From a virus (Duplodnaviria > Caudoviricetes): 27,695 nt of DNA. How positions within the stretch are numbered: the stretch's first letter is position 1; each line of letters begins with the position of its first letter. Both the position numbers and the translations under genes were made by a program. Positions 645-20,860 of this stretch are shown piece by piece. Location: positions 1 to 27,695 of the IMG/VR virus record IMGVR_UViG_3300025646_000258. One strand, written 5' to 3'. The notes under the pieces were generated by a model. It worked only from the letters and a program-made list of their open reading frames with translations. It searched no databases and had not been told where the DNA came from.

Positions 645-684
645 GGGGCGGGGGGTTCCCCTCCGCACACCGGCCCTCCGCCCC
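645..684 (+). other. GC-rich intergenic stem-loop
   Basis: GGGGCGGGGGGTT (645-657) pairs with GGCCCTCCGCCCC (672-684) over 13 bp including G-U pairs. It lies in the longest intergenic gap of the window. Confidence 0.55.
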
Positions 685-736
685 ACCTACGGTGCACTTA
701 AGACCCACCGGCACTTCGCCATTTCGAGGGAACACC

Positions 737-1297
737 ATGTCCGGTGTAGATAACAGCAACAATGACCAAGCAGAAATTCGACTGATGGGGCTCATCCTGA
801 CGCAGGCTGTGTCCATTGGTTTGGCCATCGCCATCTTTGATTCTGGCATCTGGCTTAACCTTCCTGAGCCAACCCTCAACGGCGTGACCTACGCTATGGC
901 AGCCTTCGCCGTGCAAGGCTTAGCCTACTACCTGTTCAAAATGTTCTTTCAGCAAGGAATGGATGAACGCGCTCGCGCTGCTGCTCAAGAGCGTGCTCGG
1001 CGCACACGCTATCGCAGCATGGAGATGAACTTCGACCAGCGGCGTCAGGATATGGAGATGCGGATGCAGGAGGCTCAATTGGAAGCCGAACTCCGCTGGA
1101 TGGAGAAGAACCCCGGTCGCACACCTCCTTGGATAGAATCTCGCATGGCTTCGGCCAGTTCTTCGTCGGTCGACTTCATCCCAGAAGAAGTGGCAAGGCA
1201 CGTGGCACCAATGAGCCTTGGGCTTGAGTTCACTGACGCTGAAGAGGACGTCGGTCCTGAGCGCGGTCCTGATGGAAAGTTCAAGAAGAAGGAGTGA
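737..1297 (+). CDS. Membrane protein with two N-terminal TM helices and a coiled-coil/charged tail
   Basis: Hydrophobic segments LMGLILTQAVSIGLAIAIF and GVTYAMAAFAVQGLAYYLF, followed by an R/E/Q-rich helix. ATG at 737 follows GAGGG and is preferred over the track start at 692. Confidence 0.8.
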   Translation: MSGVDNSNNDQAEIRLMGLILTQAVSIGLAIAIFDSGIWLNLPEPTLNGVTYAMAAFAVQGLAYYLFKMFFQQGMDERARAAAQERARRTRYRSMEMNFDQRRQDMEMRMQEAQLEAELRWMEKNPGRTPPWIESRMASASSSSVDFIPEEVARHVAPMSLGLEFTDAEEDVGPERGPDGKFKKKE

Positions 1298-1303
1298 TGG
1301 GGC

Positions 1304-1552
1304 TTGGGCCGCATCTTCAAGACGCCGTCTGACGATGCCGTCGAGGAGACCCTTCGGAGCATGCACATCGCCAACACGGTGGACGTGGCCTACGAGCGCA
1401 GTCTTGGATGGTTGCGTACCGTTCTGTTTTCTGTCGCCACAGCATTCATCATTAGTGGCTACGAGTTCTACCGTGACTGGAGTCTTTGGGAGTCAACGGG
1501 TGAGTGGGTCAGAGAAACGCTTCGTCGGTGGGCAGACTCGATTTTCAACTGA
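1304..1552 (+). CDS. Small single-pass membrane protein
   Basis: TTG start 6 nt after GGAGTGA; hydrophobic stretch LGWLRTVLFSVATAFIISGY; Trp-rich C-terminus; tightly packed between neighbouring genes. Confidence 0.75.
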   Translation: MGRIFKTPSDDAVEETLRSMHIANTVDVAYERSLGWLRTVLFSVATAFIISGYEFYRDWSLWESTGEWVRETLRRWADSIFN

Positions 1553-1561
1553 GGTTCGACC

Positions 1562-2284
1562 ATGAGTGCAATCGGAGGCTCCGCACTGGTCGGTGGCGTC
1601 GTTTTTGCTCGTGAGTTGTGGCACTACTGGAAGCCTCGCCGCGTCGGTGTCTACGGTCCGCCTATGGTTGGCAAGACGACGCTCGACCGCTACATGACCA
1701 CACCCGGTGAGATGGAAGCCATCCCTGAAGACGAACGAACCAAGCACTTCAAGGTCCCCGGACTGAATCGTTTTTTGCTGCCCACCCCAACACGAAAGCG
1801 CGTGTCCTACAAGGGCGATACGCGGGTGGTTTATTCTTCGGACGTGGGAGGCGACGAGCGCTTTTGGAACCTCTGGATTGACGACATGGTCAACCGTCAA
1901 GTCGAATCCATCGTCTTTCTGTTTGACCATCGCTCAAAGGACGGTGGCGAAGCGGCCATTCAAGCCATTGGCGGCTTCAAGTACCTCGTTGACGCTGTTC
2001 TGCATCGCCAATATCGGTACCGCAACTTGAAATCGTGGATGAAGGGGAAAAAGTATGCACCAAAAATCGTCATGCTCGTGGCGAACAAAGCCGACCAGTG
2101 GTGGGACGAACAAGCCAACATTCTCTGGCAACAGCAGCGACTCGGTGAACACGCCATGTACGACCCTTTCAGAGCCGACCTCGTCCGTTTGCAGAAGGCG
2201 GGTATTCCTACGAAGAGGGGAATGATGGCCACAAGAATTGGCTGGAACGTCGAAAACACGATGCTTGACTTGCTGACTGGATAG
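1562..2284 (+). CDS. Ras-superfamily (Arf/Sar1/Rab-like) small GTPase
   Basis: G1 GPPMVGKT (1655-1678), G3 DVGG followed by DERFWNLW (from 1841), beta strand IVFLFD, G4 NKAD (2084-2095) and a G5-like MATRIGWNVENTM. N-terminal hydrophobic/aromatic segment. Confidence 0.9.
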   Translation: MSAIGGSALVGGVVFARELWHYWKPRRVGVYGPPMVGKTTLDRYMTTPGEMEAIPEDERTKHFKVPGLNRFLLPTPTRKRVSYKGDTRVVYSSDVGGDERFWNLWIDDMVNRQVESIVFLFDHRSKDGGEAAIQAIGGFKYLVDAVLHRQYRYRNLKSWMKGKKYAPKIVMLVANKADQWWDEQANILWQQQRLGEHAMYDPFRADLVRLQKAGIPTKRGMMATRIGWNVENTMLDLLTG

Positions 2285-2294
2285 GTGATAAGTG

Positions 2295-3299
2295 ATGATT
2301 GGAAGATTTGGTGGATATGGGCAGGTACCGCAGAGTGACGCGAGTCTGGCGACGATGAGTCAGGCTCACTTAATGGCATTGAGCCAGCAAGGCAACGCGA
2401 GCCATGAGCAATTGCTGGAGATGCAGGCTGCTCAGCAAGGCATGCGGGACATGGCTGGCAAGCAGAACATTGTCGTGCCAAAGGTCAACTTCTATCCGAG
2501 CCGCCATCCTGACCCTCGGAAGGCGAGGAAGCAGGACATTCGGCAGGCTCGGAGTCTTTTGACGCCGACCAAGCGAGGTTTGCTGAATCCATTCCGCTGG
2601 GTTTGGACGTTTAAGTACAGGTACAACAGGCAGAGCAACCTCTGCGTCATCGACGGGTGCAACTGCGAGGAACTGATTCGCTACGACAACCTCTACGCGA
2701 AGATTACGGATGAGGAAACCGGCAAGAGTTTGTGGGAACTCTACTGGCGAAACCCCGTCACACAGACTCCAGAGCCTTTCGTGGCACGGGAAAAGGTCAC
2801 CAACGGTCAGAAAATGAAGGGGACCTACTGTCCTGAGCACCTCCACCTTTACCACCTCCTGTGCAAGTGGGAAGCCGAGAACGACAAGGACCACAACACC
2901 ACCAAGACGGGAATGAAGGAAATGGTCAAGAAGGGTGTTTCGACGGTCGCTGTTCCTATCGCGGTGGTCAAGAAGAAGGACAACACGCCTGAGTTGCTCA
3001 AGAAGTACGAGCCCTTCTTTATGGAATTGGAAAGGGACTCCAGCACGCACCCCGGCATCACCCTCTCGCACTACCAGAACCCTGAAACCGGACTGAACGA
3101 CATCACCACGGTCACTTTTGACTTGCGGATGTTTCAGAAAGAAGTGCTGGCCACGCGACCTCAACTCTCTGATGCCATCGCGAACCTTGGCATCATGCAG
3201 ATTGCACCGACCCACCCTGTAGTCGGACCAGCAGAAGGTGTTATGGGAAGGCCTGAACTCCCACAGACCGAGCAGGGTCTGTTCGGACAGGGGGCTTGA
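2295..3299 (+). CDS. Hypothetical protein with a putative Zn-binding domain
   Basis: ATG 6 nt after AGGTGA. CVIDGCNC ... YCPEHLHLYHLLC ligand set; Gln/Met-rich N-terminus. Confidence 0.75.
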   Translation: MIGRFGGYGQVPQSDASLATMSQAHLMALSQQGNASHEQLLEMQAAQQGMRDMAGKQNIVVPKVNFYPSRHPDPRKARKQDIRQARSLLTPTKRGLLNPFRWVWTFKYRYNRQSNLCVIDGCNCEELIRYDNLYAKITDEETGKSLWELYWRNPVTQTPEPFVAREKVTNGQKMKGTYCPEHLHLYHLLCKWEAENDKDHNTTKTGMKEMVKKGVSTVAVPIAVVKKKDNTPELLKKYEPFFMELERDSSTHPGITLSHYQNPETGLNDITTVTFDLRMFQKEVLATRPQLSDAIANLGIMQIAPTHPVVGPAEGVMGRPELPQTEQGLFGQGA

Positions 3300-3302
3300 G
3301 TC

Positions 3303-3920
3303 ATGTTTGGCAACCCATCATCATCTGGAGCATTGAATCTTGGTGCCTCTTCAATGGTCGCGCAGCCTGCCATGTCGAACCCCTTCGCTTCACAGGGTAT
3401 GCAGCAGATGTCCCAGTCCCCCTTCATGGGAGGGATGGCTGGTGGCATGGGCATGCAGCAGAACATGATGCAGCAGCCTATGGCACCTCCCAGTGAAATG
3501 GAAATTCAATTAGCACTGATGCGCACTTTGGCTCCTATTGACCGCTTCGTTGCCGGACCGAGCATGGCTACGTTGGTGAAAATGCTCAACGACCTCATGT
3601 CTTTCTCGATTCTTGAAATCTTGAAAAGTGCTACGTTCAAACTTGACGATGAAGGCGTGATGAAAATGGACATTACGAGCCTTCCTCCTCATCTGCAGAC
3701 GATGAGCGCTGAGAACGTCACCACTCAGTATAACTCACTCCAGATGGTGAGTCAGCAGAGCATTCAGCAGGCAGAAATGCAGCAGCAGCAGATTGCTGCG
3801 TTTGCACAGCAGAGCATGATGGGAGGCGCGTTGAGCGCAGCCCTTGCGAATGAAGGCCTCATGGACAGGGCAGGTGGCGCTGCTGGTAAGTTCATGGGTT
3901 CGTTTATGGGGGTGAGGTGA
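3303..3920 (+). CDS. Met/Gln/Gly-rich hypothetical protein
   Basis: Starts 3 nt after the upstream stop. Low-complexity M/Q/G termini flank a central helical region, and the C-terminus (AAGKFMGSFMGVR) looks amphipathic. Confidence 0.75.
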   Translation: MFGNPSSSGALNLGASSMVAQPAMSNPFASQGMQQMSQSPFMGGMAGGMGMQQNMMQQPMAPPSEMEIQLALMRTLAPIDRFVAGPSMATLVKMLNDLMSFSILEILKSATFKLDDEGVMKMDITSLPPHLQTMSAENVTTQYNSLQMVSQQSIQQAEMQQQQIAAFAQQSMMGGALSAALANEGLMDRAGGAAGKFMGSFMGVR

Positions 3921-4159
3921 TGATTCAGGATTCTATGTCGGGTTTTGCGTCTTCGACGATGGAGATTTTCGCTCCGGTGAAAAGCGTCATCATCGACATG
4001 GTCATGGTGCAACTGTTGTCCATCATCATCGCATTGGCAGCCATTTTACTACTTGCATCCTCGGAGTTGAAGAGTGACCAGATTGCCTACCTTGTGGCAG
4101 GACTATTCGGGGCGTTCTTCATGCTCGGCAGCATCTATGCCCGCATCTCCGAGGTGTAG
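3917..4159 (+). CDS. Small two-TM membrane protein
   Basis: Overlaps the upstream stop (GTGA; ATG at 3920 is an alternative start). TM1 VMVQLLSIIIALAAILLLA and TM2 IAYLVAGLFGAFFMLGSIYA. Confidence 0.75.
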   Translation: MMIQDSMSGFASSTMEIFAPVKSVIIDMVMVQLLSIIIALAAILLLASSELKSDQIAYLVAGLFGAFFMLGSIYARISEV

Positions 4160-4429
4160 AGGGCCAGTGTAGCGACCCCACTTCTTGAGTGGGCACTCGC
4201 TCGACCGCAGCACGGTCTTGACCCGCATTTGGCAGCCGCACTCCAAGCACCGGCTGTACCATTCGTCCCAGCGCGGGCAGGTTTTACAGATGCTGATTCG
4301 CTCTGTCTGAATTTGGTCAGGTACAAAGCGGCGCAGTCCAGCGTCTCGTGCTGCTCGACTAAGGTCGACAACGGTTTTCATGGACACAGGTACGCCTGCA
4401 ATCCGAGGTGCAGCGCGTGGCAGTTTCAT
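4103..4429 (-). CDS. Small Cys-rich Zn-binding protein (resembles the DUF6171-like R-x-x-IC-x-x-C...C-x-x-CGC...K...CP-x-x-KW pattern)
   Basis: Within the track ORF 4103..4642(-). Motif ERISICKTCP...RCLECGCQMRVKTVLRSSECPLKKW. ATG at 4429 fills the otherwise empty gap 4160-4430. The family name is recalled, not searched. Confidence 0.7.
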   Translation of the reverse strand: MKLPRAAPRIAGVPVSMKTVVDLSRAARDAGLRRFVPDQIQTERISICKTCPRWDEWYSRCLECGCQMRVKTVLRSSECPLKKWGRYTGPLHLGDAGIDAAEHEERPE

Positions 4430-4490: not shown

Positions 4491-5189
4491 ATGGGGAGCG
4501 GACGCCAGAACAAGCGTTCATGTCCGTTCTGCCAACACGGCGACCGTGACTCGTTGGAACAGAGCATCATCGACGGGGTCGCCGAAGCCCGATTGATAGA
4601 CCAAGACTTGGGCTGGAGAGCCAATACGGCTGAACGCCACATGAAAAATCACGTCGGTGACTATCATGTCGGCGCCAACCACTCCTGCGCGGTCTGCACC
4701 GACGACAACCGGCGCATGTTTGAGGTCGCCTACTTTGAAGGCGAGCGCACCACGGACGACATCGCTGAAGAATTGGGGTGCAGTGAAGAATTGGTCTACC
4801 GCCACATGAAGCAGCACTTCCAACCGTTGGTCAAGAAGTCGTCAGCGGCCATCGTGGCCATTGATGCTGGGCAGGAAATCGACATCTTGCGCGACAACGT
4901 CCAGTCCCTCAACGGCAAGTTGGCTCAGTTCATGCAGGAAAGCAGCGTGCACGATGATGGCGTGATTGCCGACATGGTGCGTCTGCACAAGGAAGTGCGC
5001 GAGACACTCAAGGACCTCAGCATGTATCAGGAGAAGTGGGCTACCCCGACAACGAGCGTGGCCAACAGCACCATCAATGTCCTGAAAGTTGAGTTGGGTA
5101 AGGAGAGCCCTGAAGTATGGCGCCGCGTCCGCGAAAGCCTGCTGTCCCAAGCCGATGGTGTCGACGAAGACATCGTAGATATTCTGTGA
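4491..5189 (+). CDS. Tandem Zn-finger/HTH DNA-binding protein with C-terminal coiled coil; candidate terminase small subunit
   Basis: Two repeats: CPFCQH...LG...ERHMKNH and CAVC...DDIAEELGCSEELVYRHMKQH. A coiled coil follows, and the gene heads the run leading to TerL. Start could alternatively be 4464. TerS role is inferred. Confidence 0.65.
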   Translation: MGSGRQNKRSCPFCQHGDRDSLEQSIIDGVAEARLIDQDLGWRANTAERHMKNHVGDYHVGANHSCAVCTDDNRRMFEVAYFEGERTTDDIAEELGCSEELVYRHMKQHFQPLVKKSSAAIVAIDAGQEIDILRDNVQSLNGKLAQFMQESSVHDDGVIADMVRLHKEVRETLKDLSMYQEKWATPTTSVANSTINVLKVELGKESPEVWRRVRESLLSQADGVDEDIVDIL

Positions 5190-14691: not shown

Positions 14692-15042
14692 ATGAAGCCA
14701 CGATTTGAGCCAGTGCCAGACGAAGTTCACCATTTGCTGAAGGCTGCGCGCGAACTTGAAGACCGCATCGCCAAGAAGGAGGGCAGCATGCCCGACTACT
14801 CTGGACAAAAAGAAGGTGCAACGCAGGGCAGTGCCCGTTTTGAAGCACAGCCCTCCGGTGTCCCCAACACCTTCTACAACACGAACAACGTCGTGCCTGA
14901 AGTTCAGGACGTGAAGAACAAGGGCGCTATCTCTGAGAGCAGCAGCGTGCTCGACAAGAACCCCTACTACCCAACGGCCTTCAGCACCACTGGCGCTCTG
15001 GAGAACACGGCGGGCGATAAGGGTGCGCGAAACTCCCCTTGA
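14692..15042 (+). CDS. Small hypothetical head-module protein
   Basis: ATG at 14692 after GGAGTGAGG; short helix followed by a polar disordered tail. Confidence 0.72.
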   Translation: MKPRFEPVPDEVHHLLKAARELEDRIAKKEGSMPDYSGQKEGATQGSARFEAQPSGVPNTFYNTNNVVPEVQDVKNKGAISESSSVLDKNPYYPTAFSTTGALENTAGDKGARNSP

Positions 15043-18000
15043 TACGCTCGACCGAGCGAGGGATGTCTTCGCCAAGTCGCTGACCGATGGCGTCGGAAGG
15101 GCGGATGCAGGGGCTGAGTTTTTCCTTCAGGCCGTGAGCGCTGAGCGCCACGGCTATCTTTTGGGTGCAGACGACGAAGCACTCATCAAGATGTTCTACG
15201 CCGTCATCCGTAAGGAAGACGAAGGTGCAACGGGCACGCAGGGTGCGGTTGACCTTGCCAACGACATGAACGAAGGTATGCAGGAAAGCGGTCTGAGCCA
15301 GTACCAAATTGGCTACGACATCAGTCATGGGGCTGGAATGGGGCTGGCCCCAAACCCCTCCTATGACGAGAATCGAGTTGTCCCTCCTGAGCCAACCGCT
15401 GGCTCTCTTGTCGGTCACCATGTGCAAATGGTTGACGGTCATGAAGACGACCCTTACCGTACTCACGACGTGTTTGGCCCTGACTTCAACCCGCTTTACG
15501 GTCGCATGGGCGAGCATTTGGCTGGCTACTACGTGGCGGACGACCCTCGCGAAGAATCTGTAGCCCAGAAGCATCATCACAAAGAAGGTGCGTGGGAAGA
15601 AGAGGCGAAGGATGGTCTGCACAGTTTCCTGCGTAACGTGCATCACCTCGGCAAGTTGGACACCGATTATGCGACCAACCATGCCCTGTATGAGAGAGAC
15701 TACTCTGATTGGACATCAAACAACAGTTCGGACCTGAGCAGGGTACGCCAGCAATTGGAAGAGGAAGGGTTGGACGAAGGCGAAATTGACCACCGCTTTC
15801 GTCAAGCGCACATCAAGCAGAAGCAGGCTGAGTGGGACGAGAACCTTGGGTTCTTCGACTACCTCTTTGGCATGGAATGGCTGACGCCAGAAGAGCGTGC
15901 AAAGGCCTACGAGTACATGCGCGAGCATGGGGCTGCAAGGCACGAACAGAAACCTCTCAAGTTTGGGCGTCACACAAACGACCCCGATTTCATGCCGCGC
16001 TTCAAGCGCTCGTTCTGGCAGAGGTTCGCCCCTTACTACGACTGGTGGGTGCGCGACCCCAAGGGTCCGGGCGAGGGCATGATGAACCGCCCCATTCGAC
16101 TCCCAGAGGCAGCGACTGAGTACACCGAGAAGCGTTTCAACCTCGATGCACTGCGCTCTCACCGCCCTGACGTCGGTGGCGCACACGGACTTGAGCGAGC
16201 ATACGACTCGTTCAACAGGTTCCTTGATATTGCGGCTCAGTACGAAGGAGTTGACCCCAGACACGTTGAGAAGTACCGGATGAAGGGCGGTCGAGTGCCA
16301 GTCCTGAATCCTGATTATGATGAGAATGGTGAGCAACTTCCCTTACAGTTGACCAACATCGGTAGTCAGCAAGAAATGCGTCCTCAATCAAAAAATGACT
16401 TGCAGGCCCGTAGCAACGGTCTCGGTGAACTCGAATTGCGCCTTCTTCTGGGCATCGACATGAACGGGAAGTTGTACGAAGAAGGGAAGCACCCCCTGTG
16501 GGGAAACCTTTGGATGGCCAAGGACCAGTTCGGAAATCCGGTTGCAGGGATGCAACCTGAGTTCACGCAGGAAGAGGCTGACTCCATCATGCGGGAGCGG
16601 TTACGAGAAGGTGTCCAGACGGCTGCGCCCGGACGTGCTGCTCGCAACCACGCCATTGGGATGTACGGTACCTACGTTGACCCTGACGCTTACGGTTGGA
16701 CCGAAGACCACGATTCGCTCAAGACGTACTTTGCCGAACCCTTCCTCGGCATGGGTGGCCTGCACAAGAACCCTAACGAGTTGTTCAACATCCTTCACCA
16801 CGCAAGTCTTCTTTTCTCGCCCAAGCAGCAGCAGACTCAAGACGAAAGCGAGGCCTTGCGGGGCTTTTCATTGGCTGACTTTGGTATCGAAGAGGAGGAT
16901 GTGCCTGAAGAAGAGGCGGAGTACGAGGCTCAGATGGCTTCTCCTCGCGAGAACAAAGGGGGCAAGCGCGAAGAGAGTCTGCTGTTTTCGCGCACAGGGA
17001 ACAGTATCATGCACCGGCATGACCCAGAATCGGATTCGGCGGCCACCATGGGACCATTCTTGGGACCCTTTGACCAGCGGTCCATCCAGATGGGGGACAT
17101 GGCAGTGGGCAACAAAACAGTTCTGACCAACTCCAAAGGCTCTGACGTCGACGCGGCTGCGAACCTTTCACCTCACCACGTTCTTCAATCGTCCAGTCGA
17201 CAGGGGACGTTCGGCTTCAACTCTCAGACGACCCGACACAACGTGACGGTTGACTCGGCGCACGCCAACCGCCTTCAGGGGGAATACCACAACGCCCGTG
17301 AGTCCGGGGACAGCGATGCTGCACAGGCTGCTCACGACGCGATGAGAGGTAATGTGCCTGAACATATCAAAATCAGCAACCCCTTCGGAGCCGAGGGCGG
17401 CGCTCTCAGCGACGAGACCTTCAATGCCCACGGGGCGCATCACTACTACGACATCGCTCATCGACTTGGCTTTGGTCGAGCGCCAATGGACCCTCAGCGA
17501 GAGCCTTTGGAGCACGGAAGCGCCTTGATGGGCCAGTCTCCGCTGCGCAATCCAGATGAAATGGAGCGGCTTAGTCGGCGGGTCGCTGTTCCTGAAGAAG
17601 CCAACTTTGAGACGGCGAAAGCCGCACTTGATGAGGAGTACGAACGGTACTCCAAATCGGTAGGCGACTCAGAGGAAAAGCAGCAGGAGTTGAAAGAGGA
17701 GTACGAGCGAAGGCTTGCTCGTCTTCAGCAAGAGCATGCTCTGAGACCTTATCCTGACGAAGAAGCACTGTACGGCACAGAATCGTTTTCGATGCCAGAG
17801 CAAGGCGGTATGTTCGGAGCGCTCCAAGGCGGACTTGTTCCTCGGTTGTCGATGCCCAGCCCCCTCAAAGAAAATGAAGAGGAGTTTTTTCGTCTTGTCG
17901 ATGCGTCGGCTCAAGTGCAGGAAGCGCTTGACGCCACAGATGACCCTGCTCGTCGAAAGCAGTTGCAGTCTGAACTCATCGACCTGAATCAGCAGATGGA

Positions 18001-20860
18001 CGTGTTGGAGTCCACGCTTGGTGATGTAGGGGGTCAAGTGGAGGTAGGGGCTGTTTCTTCTACAAGTAAGCGGGCTTCTAAGCGGGCTTCTGTACGAGCA
18101 ACGCATCAGAAGTTGAGGGGCGATACGCAGGCGATTGCGGAAGCAGGCGCTCATTTGAAAGACGTCATCGGCACGACCGACCCGGACGCGCTGGCCCACA
18201 TTTTCGACCCAAGCCTGCCGCACGCCACTGTTGAGGCCAACATGCGTCAGTGGGCGCGCATGGCCAACGACTACCTCAACCGCGTACCGCACCGCCTTCA
18301 CGGCATCCATACCTTGGGGACCACCGAGTTCAGCGAGGCTGGGAGCCAAGCGCAGACGGGCTTTGGCACAAACATCAAGCGCATGGTGCACGATGCAGGC
18401 CAAGTGCCGCCGGTCGACCTGCAGATGATTCTTTCTGGCGGCGCTGGTGATGCGGTGAACGCCATCCTCGATACGCTGGAGTTGGACCCGAACGACCCTC
18501 GCCACGTCAAGATGGCAGAGGAATACTTGGAGCACGATATGTTTCCGAGGATGCTTTCAGGCCAGCCTACCGCGCCCGTGATGACCCTGCGTCAGGTGTT
18601 CAAGCAGATGTACCCGGACATCGACATCGACTTTGAAATCGGCGACCTCCGTAAGCGCACCAACCGTGGCCGTGCAGACGAAATCAAGCAGAAGGTCCAA
18701 GCCCTCCACCGCACCTTTGCCGTAGGTGCTGAAGAGCGCAACGCTCAGTTGGGTCTGTCCCACACGCTTGCGTATAACCCGGACGACCGTGGTTCAGAGG
18801 ATTTCACCAAGAAGCGCTCTGCGATGGGCAACGCGAAGCAGAAATTACTCAGGTACGAAGACGAGCACTTCAACACCCTTCAGCAACTCGACTCCATCAT
18901 TACGGGACTGCCGGAAGTTGAGCCAGCCGCTCAGGTGATGCAAACCCGTCGAGGTATGGGCGCTGTGCCCGTGGACAAGTTCGGGCCGAACACGCACTCG
19001 GTTATGTCGCTGTACAACTCAGCGGGCTACCGTCACGGCATGGGACGAAAGATGCAACCCAACTTTGATTTCCGCATCAAGCCCGATGGCACGGTGTCCA
19101 TCCTCCCCGTGCAGCCCGGAGCGTTGACGACGCACCTTGTTCAGCCGCTGGAGTCGTTCTGGAACAAGGTCGCTCCGGCTGCATGGATGCACATGCTTCG
19201 ACACCCTGACCACGCTGACGCCCGTGCGGCGCTGAACACGGCCGAGCACGAAGCGGCTGAGTTCAAGGTCAACAGCGTGGGCATGAGCCGGAACAGCAGC
19301 GCTCACAACATCACGATGTCCGAGTCAGGCCTTGACGTGCAGTTGGCTGGCTTGACCAACCCTGACGTTATTCGCAAGGAGTTGGGGAAGAAGGTCCCGC
19401 TGCTTCAGCCGATGCACCGCATCTTCGACCTTGACGACTTGGAGCATCTGCGTGGCTTCACTGGAGACTGGGTCGTTTCGACCATGCCTGAAGGTGAGCG
19501 CGGCTTCGTCAAGAAGGAGGACGACAAGGTCACGTCTGACTCGTTCAGTTTGTCGGACAAGGACAAGGAGAACTTCACGAAAGTAGCCAGCGAGGACTAC
19601 CACGCCGACGTCATCAAATTGGAGGACGGCTACTACATCTTCGACGTCATTGAGTTTGACGAGAAAGAGGTGCACGACGTGCCTCTCAACGACCGCATGA
19701 AAATCCTGCGCGGCGCCATGGAGGGCGTGCAGAACATCCACATCCCCAGTGCGAGCGACACGCGCTTGACCGACGACGCAGGTCTCAAGGTCACAGTCGA
19801 AAACCTGCAGAAGGACGACGAACCTATCCTGCTGCGTGATGCCAAGTCCGTCTACATGGCTGGCGAGATGCGGCACCCGAAGTGGGTGCTGCTCAAGCCC
19901 GGCAAAGACGTGGTGCTCCGTGTGCTGGAGCGGCGCGGTGACGGACCCTACACCTATCGACTCGGCACTGGGCCGGTGACGCGTGAAGAGCACATCGGCT
20001 CTCGCGCCGTCGAGTCCGATGGCGAGACCTACATGGACGTCGGTGCGGCGTTCAACAGTCCTGAGAAGTTCAACGAAGGCGACCACGTGCGCGTCAACGT
20101 CGCCAACGTCAGCAAGGTGGAGGGCGCCGACAACACAGCCGTCTACACCCTGACCGGCTCTGAAATTGAAGGAGAGGCTGAAGGAGAAGGCCTCGTTAGT
20201 CAGGAAACCCTGAGCCTGCTTGCCAAAGCAGAAGACCAGTGGCTCTGCGAAGTCACACGGGCTCCCGGCGGGATTCGCGTCAGCATGCCTCAGGGTCACG
20301 TGCTGTACAAGTGCACGCAGAGCGGTTCGATGTGGACGGCCCACAGTCCGCTGGCCGACAACACGTATCTGGTTCGTCTTGCCGAAAGTCAGCGACCCTA
20401 CTGGTCTCCTGTAGCAGGTGCGATGCTCAAGGCTGACGTCGACATCAAGGAGATGGTCGAGGAAGATGAAGACGAGTTTGGCGAAGCCAAGCCTCTCATC
20501 AAGCCAAAGAAAGTGCAGGGCACGTCATGGTGGGAGCAAGAGGAGAAAGTCAAGGCGATGCGACGGGGCATCTTGACGCTGGAGCGCTTCCTGAAGAGCG
20601 GCATCGGCGCAGTGGGCGCATCAAATGCAGGTGCCAAGGGTCTGGGTTTTGACTACGCTACCCCCATTGAGTCTCCGATGGGTCCGACGAACCTCCACGA
20701 CGAGAAGACAATGCCTGATTTTGACAACCGGAAACGGCCCGGCGAGGACTCCGACATTGAGGAAGAATCGGAGGACAGCGAGCCTGCGAAGCACATGGTT
20801 ATCCCTACAAAAGAAGGCGTTCTTGAGGTCACAGACGACAAGGCCGTCTTCCGTATGTAG
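15023..20860 (+). CDS. Giant protein (1945 aa) with a C-terminal degenerate ATP-dependent DNA ligase-like nucleotidyltransferase plus OB-like region
   Basis: About 19400-20200: DWVVSTMPEGERGFV (motif I-like), YYIFDVIEFDEKEVHDVPLNDRMKIL (IIIa), EPILLRDAKSVY..GEMRHPKWVLLK (IV/V), then a beta-rich region. The N-terminal ~1450 aa is unrecognised. Confidence 0.8.
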   Translation: MRETPLDTLDRARDVFAKSLTDGVGRADAGAEFFLQAVSAERHGYLLGADDEALIKMFYAVIRKEDEGATGTQGAVDLANDMNEGMQESGLSQYQIGYDISHGAGMGLAPNPSYDENRVVPPEPTAGSLVGHHVQMVDGHEDDPYRTHDVFGPDFNPLYGRMGEHLAGYYVADDPREESVAQKHHHKEGAWEEEAKDGLHSFLRNVHHLGKLDTDYATNHALYERDYSDWTSNNSSDLSRVRQQLEEEGLDEGEIDHRFRQAHIKQKQAEWDENLGFFDYLFGMEWLTPEERAKAYEYMREHGAARHEQKPLKFGRHTNDPDFMPRFKRSFWQRFAPYYDWWVRDPKGPGEGMMNRPIRLPEAATEYTEKRFNLDALRSHRPDVGGAHGLERAYDSFNRFLDIAAQYEGVDPRHVEKYRMKGGRVPVLNPDYDENGEQLPLQLTNIGSQQEMRPQSKNDLQARSNGLGELELRLLLGIDMNGKLYEEGKHPLWGNLWMAKDQFGNPVAGMQPEFTQEEADSIMRERLREGVQTAAPGRAARNHAIGMYGTYVDPDAYGWTEDHDSLKTYFAEPFLGMGGLHKNPNELFNILHHASLLFSPKQQQTQDESEALRGFSLADFGIEEEDVPEEEAEYEAQMASPRENKGGKREESLLFSRTGNSIMHRHDPESDSAATMGPFLGPFDQRSIQMGDMAVGNKTVLTNSKGSDVDAAANLSPHHVLQSSSRQGTFGFNSQTTRHNVTVDSAHANRLQGEYHNARESGDSDAAQAAHDAMRGNVPEHIKISNPFGAEGGALSDETFNAHGAHHYYDIAHRLGFGRAPMDPQREPLEHGSALMGQSPLRNPDEMERLSRRVAVPEEANFETAKAALDEEYERYSKSVGDSEEKQQELKEEYERRLARLQQEHALRPYPDEEALYGTESFSMPEQGGMFGALQGGLVPRLSMPSPLKENEEEFFRLVDASAQVQEALDATDDPARRKQLQSELIDLNQQMDVLESTLGDVGGQVEVGAVSSTSKRASKRASVRATHQKLRGDTQAIAEAGAHLKDVIGTTDPDALAHIFDPSLPHATVEANMRQWARMANDYLNRVPHRLHGIHTLGTTEFSEAGSQAQTGFGTNIKRMVHDAGQVPPVDLQMILSGGAGDAVNAILDTLELDPNDPRHVKMAEEYLEHDMFPRMLSGQPTAPVMTLRQVFKQMYPDIDIDFEIGDLRKRTNRGRADEIKQKVQALHRTFAVGAEERNAQLGLSHTLAYNPDDRGSEDFTKKRSAMGNAKQKLLRYEDEHFNTLQQLDSIITGLPEVEPAAQVMQTRRGMGAVPVDKFGPNTHSVMSLYNSAGYRHGMGRKMQPNFDFRIKPDGTVSILPVQPGALTTHLVQPLESFWNKVAPAAWMHMLRHPDHADARAALNTAEHEAAEFKVNSVGMSRNSSAHNITMSESGLDVQLAGLTNPDVIRKELGKKVPLLQPMHRIFDLDDLEHLRGFTGDWVVSTMPEGERGFVKKEDDKVTSDSFSLSDKDKENFTKVASEDYHADVIKLEDGYYIFDVIEFDEKEVHDVPLNDRMKILRGAMEGVQNIHIPSASDTRLTDDAGLKVTVENLQKDDEPILLRDAKSVYMAGEMRHPKWVLLKPGKDVVLRVLERRGDGPYTYRLGTGPVTREEHIGSRAVESDGETYMDVGAAFNSPEKFNEGDHVRVNVANVSKVEGADNTAVYTLTGSEIEGEAEGEGLVSQETLSLLAKAEDQWLCEVTRAPGGIRVSMPQGHVLYKCTQSGSMWTAHSPLADNTYLVRLAESQRPYWSPVAGAMLKADVDIKEMVEEDEDEFGEAKPLIKPKKVQGTSWWEQEEKVKAMRRGILTLERFLKSGIGAVGASNAGAKGLGFDYATPIESPMGPTNLHDEKTMPDFDNRKRPGEDSDIEEESEDSEPAKHMVIPTKEGVLEVTDDKAVFRM
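18067..18091 (+). repeat. Perfect 12-nt tandem duplication in coding sequence
   Basis: TAAGCGGGCTTC x2, encoding KRASKRAS. Confidence 0.8.

Follow-up and report, generated by a model that had tools for sequence, protein, structure and literature searches.

A conserved cassette of small-GTPase and predicted membrane-protein genes in magroviruses: a candidate membrane-acting system

The closest described systems to the locus reported here are the small GTPases of the Arf family (Arf, Arl, Sar1, and the Asgard ArfR proteins) and, in archaeal cells, the ArvA system. An N-terminal amphipathic helix is a defining feature of the Arf family (bioRxiv 2024.02.28.582541, available in part), and in Haloferax, vesicle formation is driven by ArvA together with two partners from its operon (PMC10927574, available in part). 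The players in the egress of archaeal tailed viruses are "completely uncharacterized" according to the accessible part of a review (PMC10791045). Here, we describe a gene cassette at positions 737 to 4159 of a 27,695-nucleotide DNA (IMG/VR record IMGVR_UViG_3300025646_000258; this whole stretch is called the window), a 27.7-kb virus fragment that is part of a magrovirus, i.e., a tailed virus of Marine Group II archaea. The products of six co-oriented open reading frames (ORFs; g1 to g6, plus strand) are three putative membrane proteins, a divergent GTPase with a predicted Ras fold (g3), a Cys/His protein, and a Met/Gln-rich protein. As in the preliminary description, which had reported gaps of at most 10 nucleotides (nt), the genes are spaced by 6, 9, 10, and 3 nt, and g5 and g6 overlap. 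Likened by description to ArvA-ArvB-ArvC (OapABC; PMC10927574, in part), the cassette resembles it in having a small GTPase of archaeal setting with a helix at the N terminus (amphipathic by prediction in ArvA, putatively so here), a partner with putative Zn binding in the operon, and, presumably, membrane action. The Arv operon, however, is cellular and consists of three genes; two or three putative integral membrane proteins are additional in the viral cassette. It is likely that the cassette acts on a membrane in some way.

We found no description of the cassette in the literature, and combining "magrovirus" with "GTPase" yielded no paper. The terms GTP and GTPase were absent from the accessible main text of PMC5434244, PMC11706807, PMC8651126, PMC10160649, PMC13465236, and PMC5894146, the available portion of PMC5332604 has 0 occurrences of a GTPase term, and the ICTV profile (PMC10768690) lists no GTPase. 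Two supplement files each of PMC5434244 and PMC11706807, as far as available, contain no GTPase term, the annotation tables of PMC11706807 probably lying outside these files. JGI names some g3 relatives "GTPase SAR1 family protein", and the single GTPase gene therefore already has an automatic name. As a unit, the cassette is apparently undescribed, and it is strongly conserved.

Close relatives (clade A) were defined as the best 80 of 150 GTPase matches in IMG/VR, with GTPase identity of at least 60%. Genes g3 to g6 were present in all 80 of these loci and g1 and g2 in 79; the lone locus without g1 and g2 begins 96 bases before the GTPase gene, i.e., it is cut off. The order of all six genes was the same in 79 of the 80 GTPase-anchored loci. 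As a control set not selected on the GTPase, we used 80 of 268 terminase matches. All 43 terminase-anchored loci with at least 8.28 kb of upstream sequence hold all six genes; of the 37 shorter ones, which stop before the block is complete, six contain as much of it as would be expected. The two sets are not independent because many contigs are common to both.

The block also recurs at much greater distances, a profile search of 1.84 billion representatives having recovered 85 proteins. In clade B (13 loci, two of them cut off; 35 to 40% identity), g4 and g5 were found in all 13 loci and g1 and g6 in 12, and g2 is a small ORF with a weak match. In clade D (80 of 140 matches kept, approximately 30% identity), the block follows the capsid gene, precedes a head-tail adaptor-like gene, and lacks g6; right-sized ORFs flank the GTPase in 73 to 78 of these 80 loci, and profile comparison linked g4 with a probability of 91% and g5 with probabilities of 32% to clade A, 86% to clade B, and 97% to clade C. 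One clade D locus (L123, 7105 to 7779) has two shorter ORFs at the g4 position, either because the gene is broken or because the sequence contains an error. Clade C (4 loci, 2 of them distinct) carries g1 to g5 beside a thermosome gene. In clade E (11 metagenome loci, 7 examined), g1 and g2 are followed by a gene for an additional, acidic protein, then by g3 to g5, and last by a g6 look-alike recognized by eye; the extra protein between g2 and the GTPase in loci of this type (L296, L305, L336, and L337) has approximately 255 to 300 amino acids (aa) and a very acidic tail.

Across these clades, g1 is homologous in clades B, C, and E, g2 gives weak profile matches in the same three, and g6 occurs in clades A and B and is absent from clades C and D. 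A protein with a helix-turn-helix (HTH) follows the block in clades A and B and does not accompany it in clades C and D. The core thus comprises five genes rather than the six of the preliminary description. It is found again in four distant clades, and its genomic settings are three: upstream of the terminase region (A and B), in the capsid/adaptor interval (D), and beside the thermosome gene (C). Scattering of the homologues, which had been named in advance as an outcome that would count against a functional unit, was not what we found; counting clade E, the block travels across five clades. A cellular origin of close homologues was rejected, as the three GTDB matches are 8- to 16-kb contigs with viral gene order. 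These full-cassette, magrovirus-like contigs (L081, L082, and L083) are binned in two alphaproteobacterial genomes and one Asgard genome and are likely mis-binned.

In g3, residues G37, K38, D94, G97, N175, K176, and D178 (motifs G1, G3, and G4) do not vary among 71 viral sequences with identities as low as 27%. The AlphaFold model (pLDDT, 73.5; pTM, 0.75) has a Ras-like fold, with a pLDDT below 50 in region 37 to 50 of this single model, and the top Foldseek matches are all small GTPases (best E value, 7.5e-8; probability, 1.0). A Ras-superfamily small GTPase fold with its motifs is therefore well supported by prediction, including the P-loop Lys (K38) noted in the preliminary description, and GTP binding and hydrolysis are predicted. 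An N-terminal extension of 24 to 26 residues is hydrophobic in all four clades measured, and there are two inserts, a long one between switch I and G3 and a basic one before G4.

The same preliminary description had compared g3 with Arf/Sar1 GTPases, and Arf/Sar1-like stands as the best sequence label for a very divergent protein. With a wide g3 profile, the best true hit in the PDB was Asgard GerdArfR1 (8OUN; E value, 1.3e-8), followed by Arl8 and Arl3; a RecA row at the top of this search was rejected as a repeat artefact. According to the accessible part of its report, 8OUN is an Asgard ArfR (bioRxiv 2024.02.28.582541). A narrow g3 profile found nothing in the PDB, and the window g3 itself has no Pfam family match; among 27 relatives, Pfam Arf (PF00025) matches 9 at E values up to 0.05 (best, 4.2e-9) and Roc matches 10. 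The best 120 of 486 matches in a homolog search with the wide profile were close relatives only. With the Arf family, g3 shares the Ras fold (as predicted), a putative helix before the G domain, a D-x-G-G switch II, and a later conserved Trp (W105, invariant). The switch II signature of Arf proteins is W-D-x-G-G-Q, and this signature was not found in the 71 viral g3 sequences, which have no Trp before the Asp and a variable residue at the Gln position (Asp in the window). Further differences from the Arf family are the length of g3 (approximately 240 aa, with the two inserts) and its dedicated viral membrane partners. We regard g3 as apparently Arf-like in anatomy and do not assign it to the Arf family.

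Cellular GTPases were compared in one Asgard phylum, where 20 of 121 genomes gave a match at an E value of 1e-5 or lower, one of them via a mis-binned viral contig. The best cellular match found there, which is not thereby a source, is a small-GTPase subfamily (L281 and L285 to L295) that scores 33 to 42 bits against a virus-only profile and has similar inserts, compared with at most 25 bits for the Arf-like GTPases of genome G006. Unlike g3, the subfamily has no N-terminal helix and no cassette partners nearby. In L289 to L291, its GTPase gene adjoins one for a conserved protein of approximately 270 to 330 aa that looks DENN/GAP1-like by eye. The Rab, Ran, and Ras GTPases of giant eukaryotic viruses are likewise virus encoded and have the same fold, but their hosts are eukaryotes, their identity to g3 is 9 to 22%, and they carry Rab- or Ran-type names. 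We know of no such cassette in giant eukaryotic viruses.

Features of the cassette and its flanks are listed in Table 1. None of the products of g1 to g6 in the window matched a Pfam family above the cutoff or a PHROG. Transmembrane (TM) segments were called from Kyte-Doolittle hydropathy windows rather than by a trained predictor.

Table 1. Positions of the cassette genes and flanking features in the window
Feature	Position	Strand	Description
Hairpin	645-684	+	3' of the preceding gene; 12-13 bp; supported by compensatory changes in relatives
TATA-like element and purine motif	697-702 and 726-732	+	approximately 30 nt apart, before g1
g1	737-1297	+	186 aa; 1-2 predicted TM helices, long charged helical segment, variable tail
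g2	1304-1552	+	82 aa; one weak predicted TM helix, amphipathic C terminus
g3	1562-2284	+	240 aa; divergent small GTPase, N-terminal helix, two inserts
g4	2295-3299	+	334 aa; soluble; predicted Zn ligands C117, C122, C179, H182
g5	3303-3920	+	205 aa; Met/Gln/Gly-rich, conserved central domain
g6	3917/3920-4159	+	80 aa; small two-TM protein, accessory
Convergent gene	4103-4429	-	small, Cys-rich, DUF6171/phrog_13558-like; outside the cassette; 57-nt overlap with g6

The membrane proteins conform largely to the preliminary description. For g1, reported there with two TM segments, one clear segment is seen in the window clade, the second being below threshold in 67 of 70 close sequences, and two segments pass the threshold in the distant clades B and D (10 of 10 and 55 of 55 sequences). 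The single segment of g2 is present in 52 of 67 close sequences and the two of g6 in 66 of 68, both as described earlier. Gene g2 starts with TTG; the ATG at 1297 is out of frame. The Met/Gln-rich character assigned earlier to g5 extends to all four clades measured (7 to 11% Met and 11 to 16% Gln), and none of 71 relatives gave a family match. In its size and two helices, g6 resembles a class II holin. Holin-type lysis cassettes likewise consist of small membrane proteins near structural genes, but g6 has no holin family match, no charged C-terminal tail, and no adjoining endolysin, and the viral cassette has a GTPase at its core.

The best-conserved partner of the GTPase is g4. Its predicted structure is good in the core (pLDDT, 77.7), C117 and C179 are invariant and H182 is nearly so in 72 sequences, and the predicted Zn ligands are kept in three clades. 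No Pfam family was found among the 72 sequences. Within residues 22 to 213, the part that was well tested, the g4 fold gave no Foldseek match at an E value of 0.001 or lower, and its best VIA Z was 5.1, to generic helical bundles. ArfGAPs are recognized by a CxxC-x16-CxxC zinc finger with a catalytic Arg; g4 was rejected as an ArfGAP on the spacing of its ligands (C117/C122 to C179/H182), the lack of a conserved Arg after them, and the lack of a Pfam match in the 72 sequences. ArvB (DUF2073) and ArvC (DUF2072) were also rejected as identities for g1 to g6, with no family match even among 72 g4 and 71 g5 relatives. A complex prediction for the GTPase (with GTP and Mg) and residues 15 to 297 of g4 scored 0.01 against a mark of 0.32, which speaks neither for nor against binding.

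The cassette core is also carried by elements in which head-tail genes were not detected. The 110-kb clade C genome G001 has genes for DNA polymerase B, RNA polymerase subunit A, a thermosome, and a resolvase; in a scan of 94 ORFs, nothing matched a capsid, portal, or protease. These four genes are the ones listed for the published magrovirus "group D", which, in the part of the account available, has no morphogenetic block and is left open as to its nature; G001 fits that description. Additional records were picked with a marker unrelated to the cassette, a 204-aa protein approximately 85% identical between G001 and G002; 14 of 19 loci were taken, five short contigs being left out, and 12 were examined. 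The GTPase was present in 10 of the 12, the two misses being 10- to 12-kb fragments. These 10 carriers, too short for g6, all have g1, g4, and g5, and nine have g2. Three records of 128 to 140 kb are complete with terminal repeats, and all three carry the cassette core. They gave no match to the window terminase, to a general terminase profile, or to the Pfam portal, whereas a tailed control did; each encodes a small HerA/FtsK-like ATPase. Since the core occurs in genomes with no detectable terminase or portal, the cassette is likely host facing rather than part of the virion.

These group-D-like elements may be tailless viruses. Against this, the best PHROG match of the HerA/FtsK-like ATPase is labelled "terminase large subunit" (E value, 1.6e-17), and very divergent head-tail genes could be missed in these records. 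Sequence searches of the PDB gave no support to a tailless membrane virus or to a jelly-roll fold for the 204-aa protein, and a search with the HerA/FtsK-like ATPase alone returned only itself. For the terminase-lacking carriers, a host can be proposed from the group D description alone. A block encoding the ATPase, an Arg/Lys-rich protein, the 204-aa protein, and a 314-aa protein recurs in G001 (L261 to L266), G002, G130, G135, and G136 (in L264, 4982 to 12133, minus strand); the 204-aa protein is 76 to 87% identical across most records and approximately 52% identical in two.

Action on the host membrane is the simplest explanation of these data because a helix-bearing switch is tied to its putative membrane proteins (two or three) and to two soluble partners and is kept by genomes that differ in packaging machinery but would have the host membrane in common. 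The membrane role is better supported than its purpose. Our preferred reading, held tentatively, is that the cassette is a GTP-switched machine that bends or breaches the host cytoplasmic membrane late in the cycle for release of progeny. We prefer release on three grounds: in tailed viruses the block sits among the late genes, its control seems to be tight, and the window shows no lysis gene (no holin or lysin family among the 29 window proteins scanned). That a GTPase of this kind can bring about vesicle formation in a euryarchaeon is known from ArvA (PMC10927574). In such a machine, g1 and g2 would be embedded in the membrane and bring in g3, the N-terminal helix of g3 would be exposed on GTP binding as in Arf and ArvA, g4 and g5 might act as a regulator and a coat or scaffold, and g6 could be an optional, holin-sized helper. 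Expression would be delayed until late by the cassette's own promoter together with one of two further elements, pairing between the upstream hairpin and the g1 ribosome-binding site (RBS) or an AbrB/MazE-type regulator inserted after the GTPase.

A number of observations weigh against this release machine. Movement of the block as a unit implies joint function, and synteny does not tell which function; the window, moreover, is a fragment, and there could be a lysis gene in another part of the genome. The hosts are uncultured. HVTV-1 and HCTV-1, which are the nearest relatives in culture, lyse cells and gave no tblastn match to the GTPase, and because lytic haloviruses have no match, the cassette could at most be a lineage-specific solution to release. 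A general solution to lysis among archaeal tailed viruses, a question the preliminary description had brought up, it is not: tblastn with the GTPases of two clade representatives found no match in 50,697 phage records, the nearest cultured haloviruses included. For g3, Foldseek places Rab and Rho ahead of Arf at low TM-scores, and the predicted fold therefore does not pick a GTPase family. Its N-terminal helix (residues 3 to 23) is poorly modelled (pLDDT, 49 to 65) and weakly amphipathic in the window clade (median moment, 0.29; 0.29 to 0.46 across clades). In clades C and E, g4 has lost some of its predicted Zn ligands. In clade D, homology of g1 and g2 is not demonstrated (profile probability of less than 1% to clade A), and their assignment is positional only. 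Pairing between the window's own hairpin and the RBS is not significant (P = 0.235). 

Other functions would account for parts of the same evidence. The cassette might build membrane structures without lysis, either a replication or assembly compartment or ArvA-like vesicles that export viral DNA or particles. There is the precedent of ArvA for cellular cargo, the carriers are 100 to 140 kb long, an RNA polymerase subunit and a DNA polymerase are encoded by one that was examined, the cassette also occurs in elements in which head-tail genes were not detected, and g5 is of low complexity and scaffold-like. However, head-tail viruses assemble without a membrane, the well-tested residues of g4 (22 to 213) show no coat-like fold, and the partners match neither the ArvB nor the ArvC family, and we consider such structures unlikely. 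Still less probable is an effect on the host surface or division machinery (superinfection exclusion, a division block, or changed transport). Genes for exclusion are usually variable and patchy, whereas this block is present in every clade genome that is long enough (43 of 43), with GTPase identity of at least 60% among 80 loci, and it lies inside or beside structural gene clusters; its small membrane proteins, its own putative promoter, its optional AbrB/MazE-type regulator, and its being common to viruses whose presumed hosts are the same, and which would be competitors for them, are nevertheless consistent with such an effect.

The position of the block between capsid and adaptor genes in clade D and upstream of the terminase region in clade A would suit a virion morphogenesis or entry device whose packaged proteins aid the passage of DNA across the membrane or wrap particles in membrane. 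We find this improbable, as no structural PHROG matches the cassette and complete genomes carry it that have no detectable terminase or portal and a HerA/FtsK-like ATPase instead; because of these genomes, the cassette is not tied to one virion design. An equally poor prospect, or a slightly worse one, is that the GTPase is a membrane-anchored sensor or timer that, for example, couples the GTP level to late expression or lysis timing with no membrane deformation. The variable catalytic Gln position (Asp in the window), the regulator gene inserted in 36 of 79 close loci, and the HTH protein that follows the block in clades A and B all fit a sensor, but no DNA-binding or enzymatic output domain was found in the core, and the HTH gene does not go with the block to clades C and D.

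It is possible, if rather doubtful, that Marine Group II viruses of two unrelated particle designs, the head-tail magroviruses and large group D genomes that are perhaps tailless, membrane-containing viruses, have in common a single self-contained, Arf-like machine for membrane trafficking. If so, no GTP-switched egress system encoded by a virus would precede it in prokaryotes; it would parallel the budding of eukaryotic vesicles in minimal form and add a fourth archaeal release route to pyramids, budding, and holin-like lysis. The cassette is a compact egress candidate of 3.4 kb that lends itself to expression in Haloferax and to liposome assays, with no need for cultures of the host or the virus. 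Because complete genomes with no detectable head-tail genes also carry it, the cassette provides a handle on the "group D" elements, and movement of host-facing modules between virus types that are unrelated is suggested.

Magroviruses are abundant and prey on the main archaea of the surface ocean. In the window, the cassette is followed in order by genes for the large terminase, a nuclease, a portal, a giant ligase-domain protein, a prohead protease, and the major capsid protein, an arrangement that places the window with the magroviruses of the group A/B type. According to the accessible part of Philosof et al. (PMC5434244), both groups have a ligase and a homing nuclease within the structural module, i.e., a head-tail module with an embedded ligase and a LAGLIDADG-type nuclease, and a capsid related to those of haloviruses. 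The assignment to a Marine Group II host was made because the module in the window matches these described viruses. Among cultured viruses, the window capsid has its top match in halovirus HVTV-1 (33% identity), and the window nuclease carries the PHROG label HNH, LAGLIDADG being a reading from its sequence. The giant protein (15023 to 20860) has 1,945 aa, with an ATP-dependent DNA ligase domain near its C terminus inside the head module and no family match outside that domain. The HTH protein conserved 3' of the cassette in clades A and B is a Cys/His protein encoded at 4491 to 5189 (likely start, 4491 rather than 4380) and is possibly a small terminase subunit or a regulator. Two more proteins were searched: P0085 has five relatives with no informative name, and P0007 was not found in viral contigs but was present in metagenomes.

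The region upstream of g1 probably contains, at 697 to 732, the promoter and ribosome-binding region of the cassette itself, judging from its sequence. Among 36 distinct upstream regions from close relatives, the TATA-like element and the purine motif are 27 to 32 nt apart in 34 and 25 nt apart in two. Further upstream, 7 of 8 consensus pairs of the hairpin have compensatory changes in 20 sequences, a count that leans in the hairpin's favor because these sequences were hand-picked out of 43 for showing it; the loop motif is absent in 5 of the 43. The structured left intergenic region of the preliminary description thus reduces to this hairpin, the region as a whole folding no better than shuffles (z = 0.17). 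The loop is pyrimidine-rich and, in relatives, complements the purine motif that immediately precedes the start of g1, with pairing that beats mononucleotide shuffles (P < 0.05) in 25 of 36 distinct regions. The hairpin may be a terminator or a translation block; because the loop can pair with the purine motif, a read-through transcript could block translation of g1, while the cassette's own transcript could not. The late lysis genes of phage T4 are the model for this idea.

At the right edge, the convergent gene of the preliminary description is present in the window and absent from some relatives, in which the next gene follows g6 on the same strand; this boundary is therefore not conserved. 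Within the block, 36 of 79 close loci have a small additional gene after g3 and before g4 (L045 to L080; e.g., L065, 8761 to 8937), and of four such genes tested, one passes the MazE/AbrB cutoff and two match weakly. Judged by eye, the loci with the AbrB/MazE-type insert differ from the others in the region upstream, where short inverted repeats lie close to the start of g1. In another locus (L040, 8717 to 9774), approximately 1 kb of extra sequence with a low-complexity ORF lies between the GTPase gene and g4.

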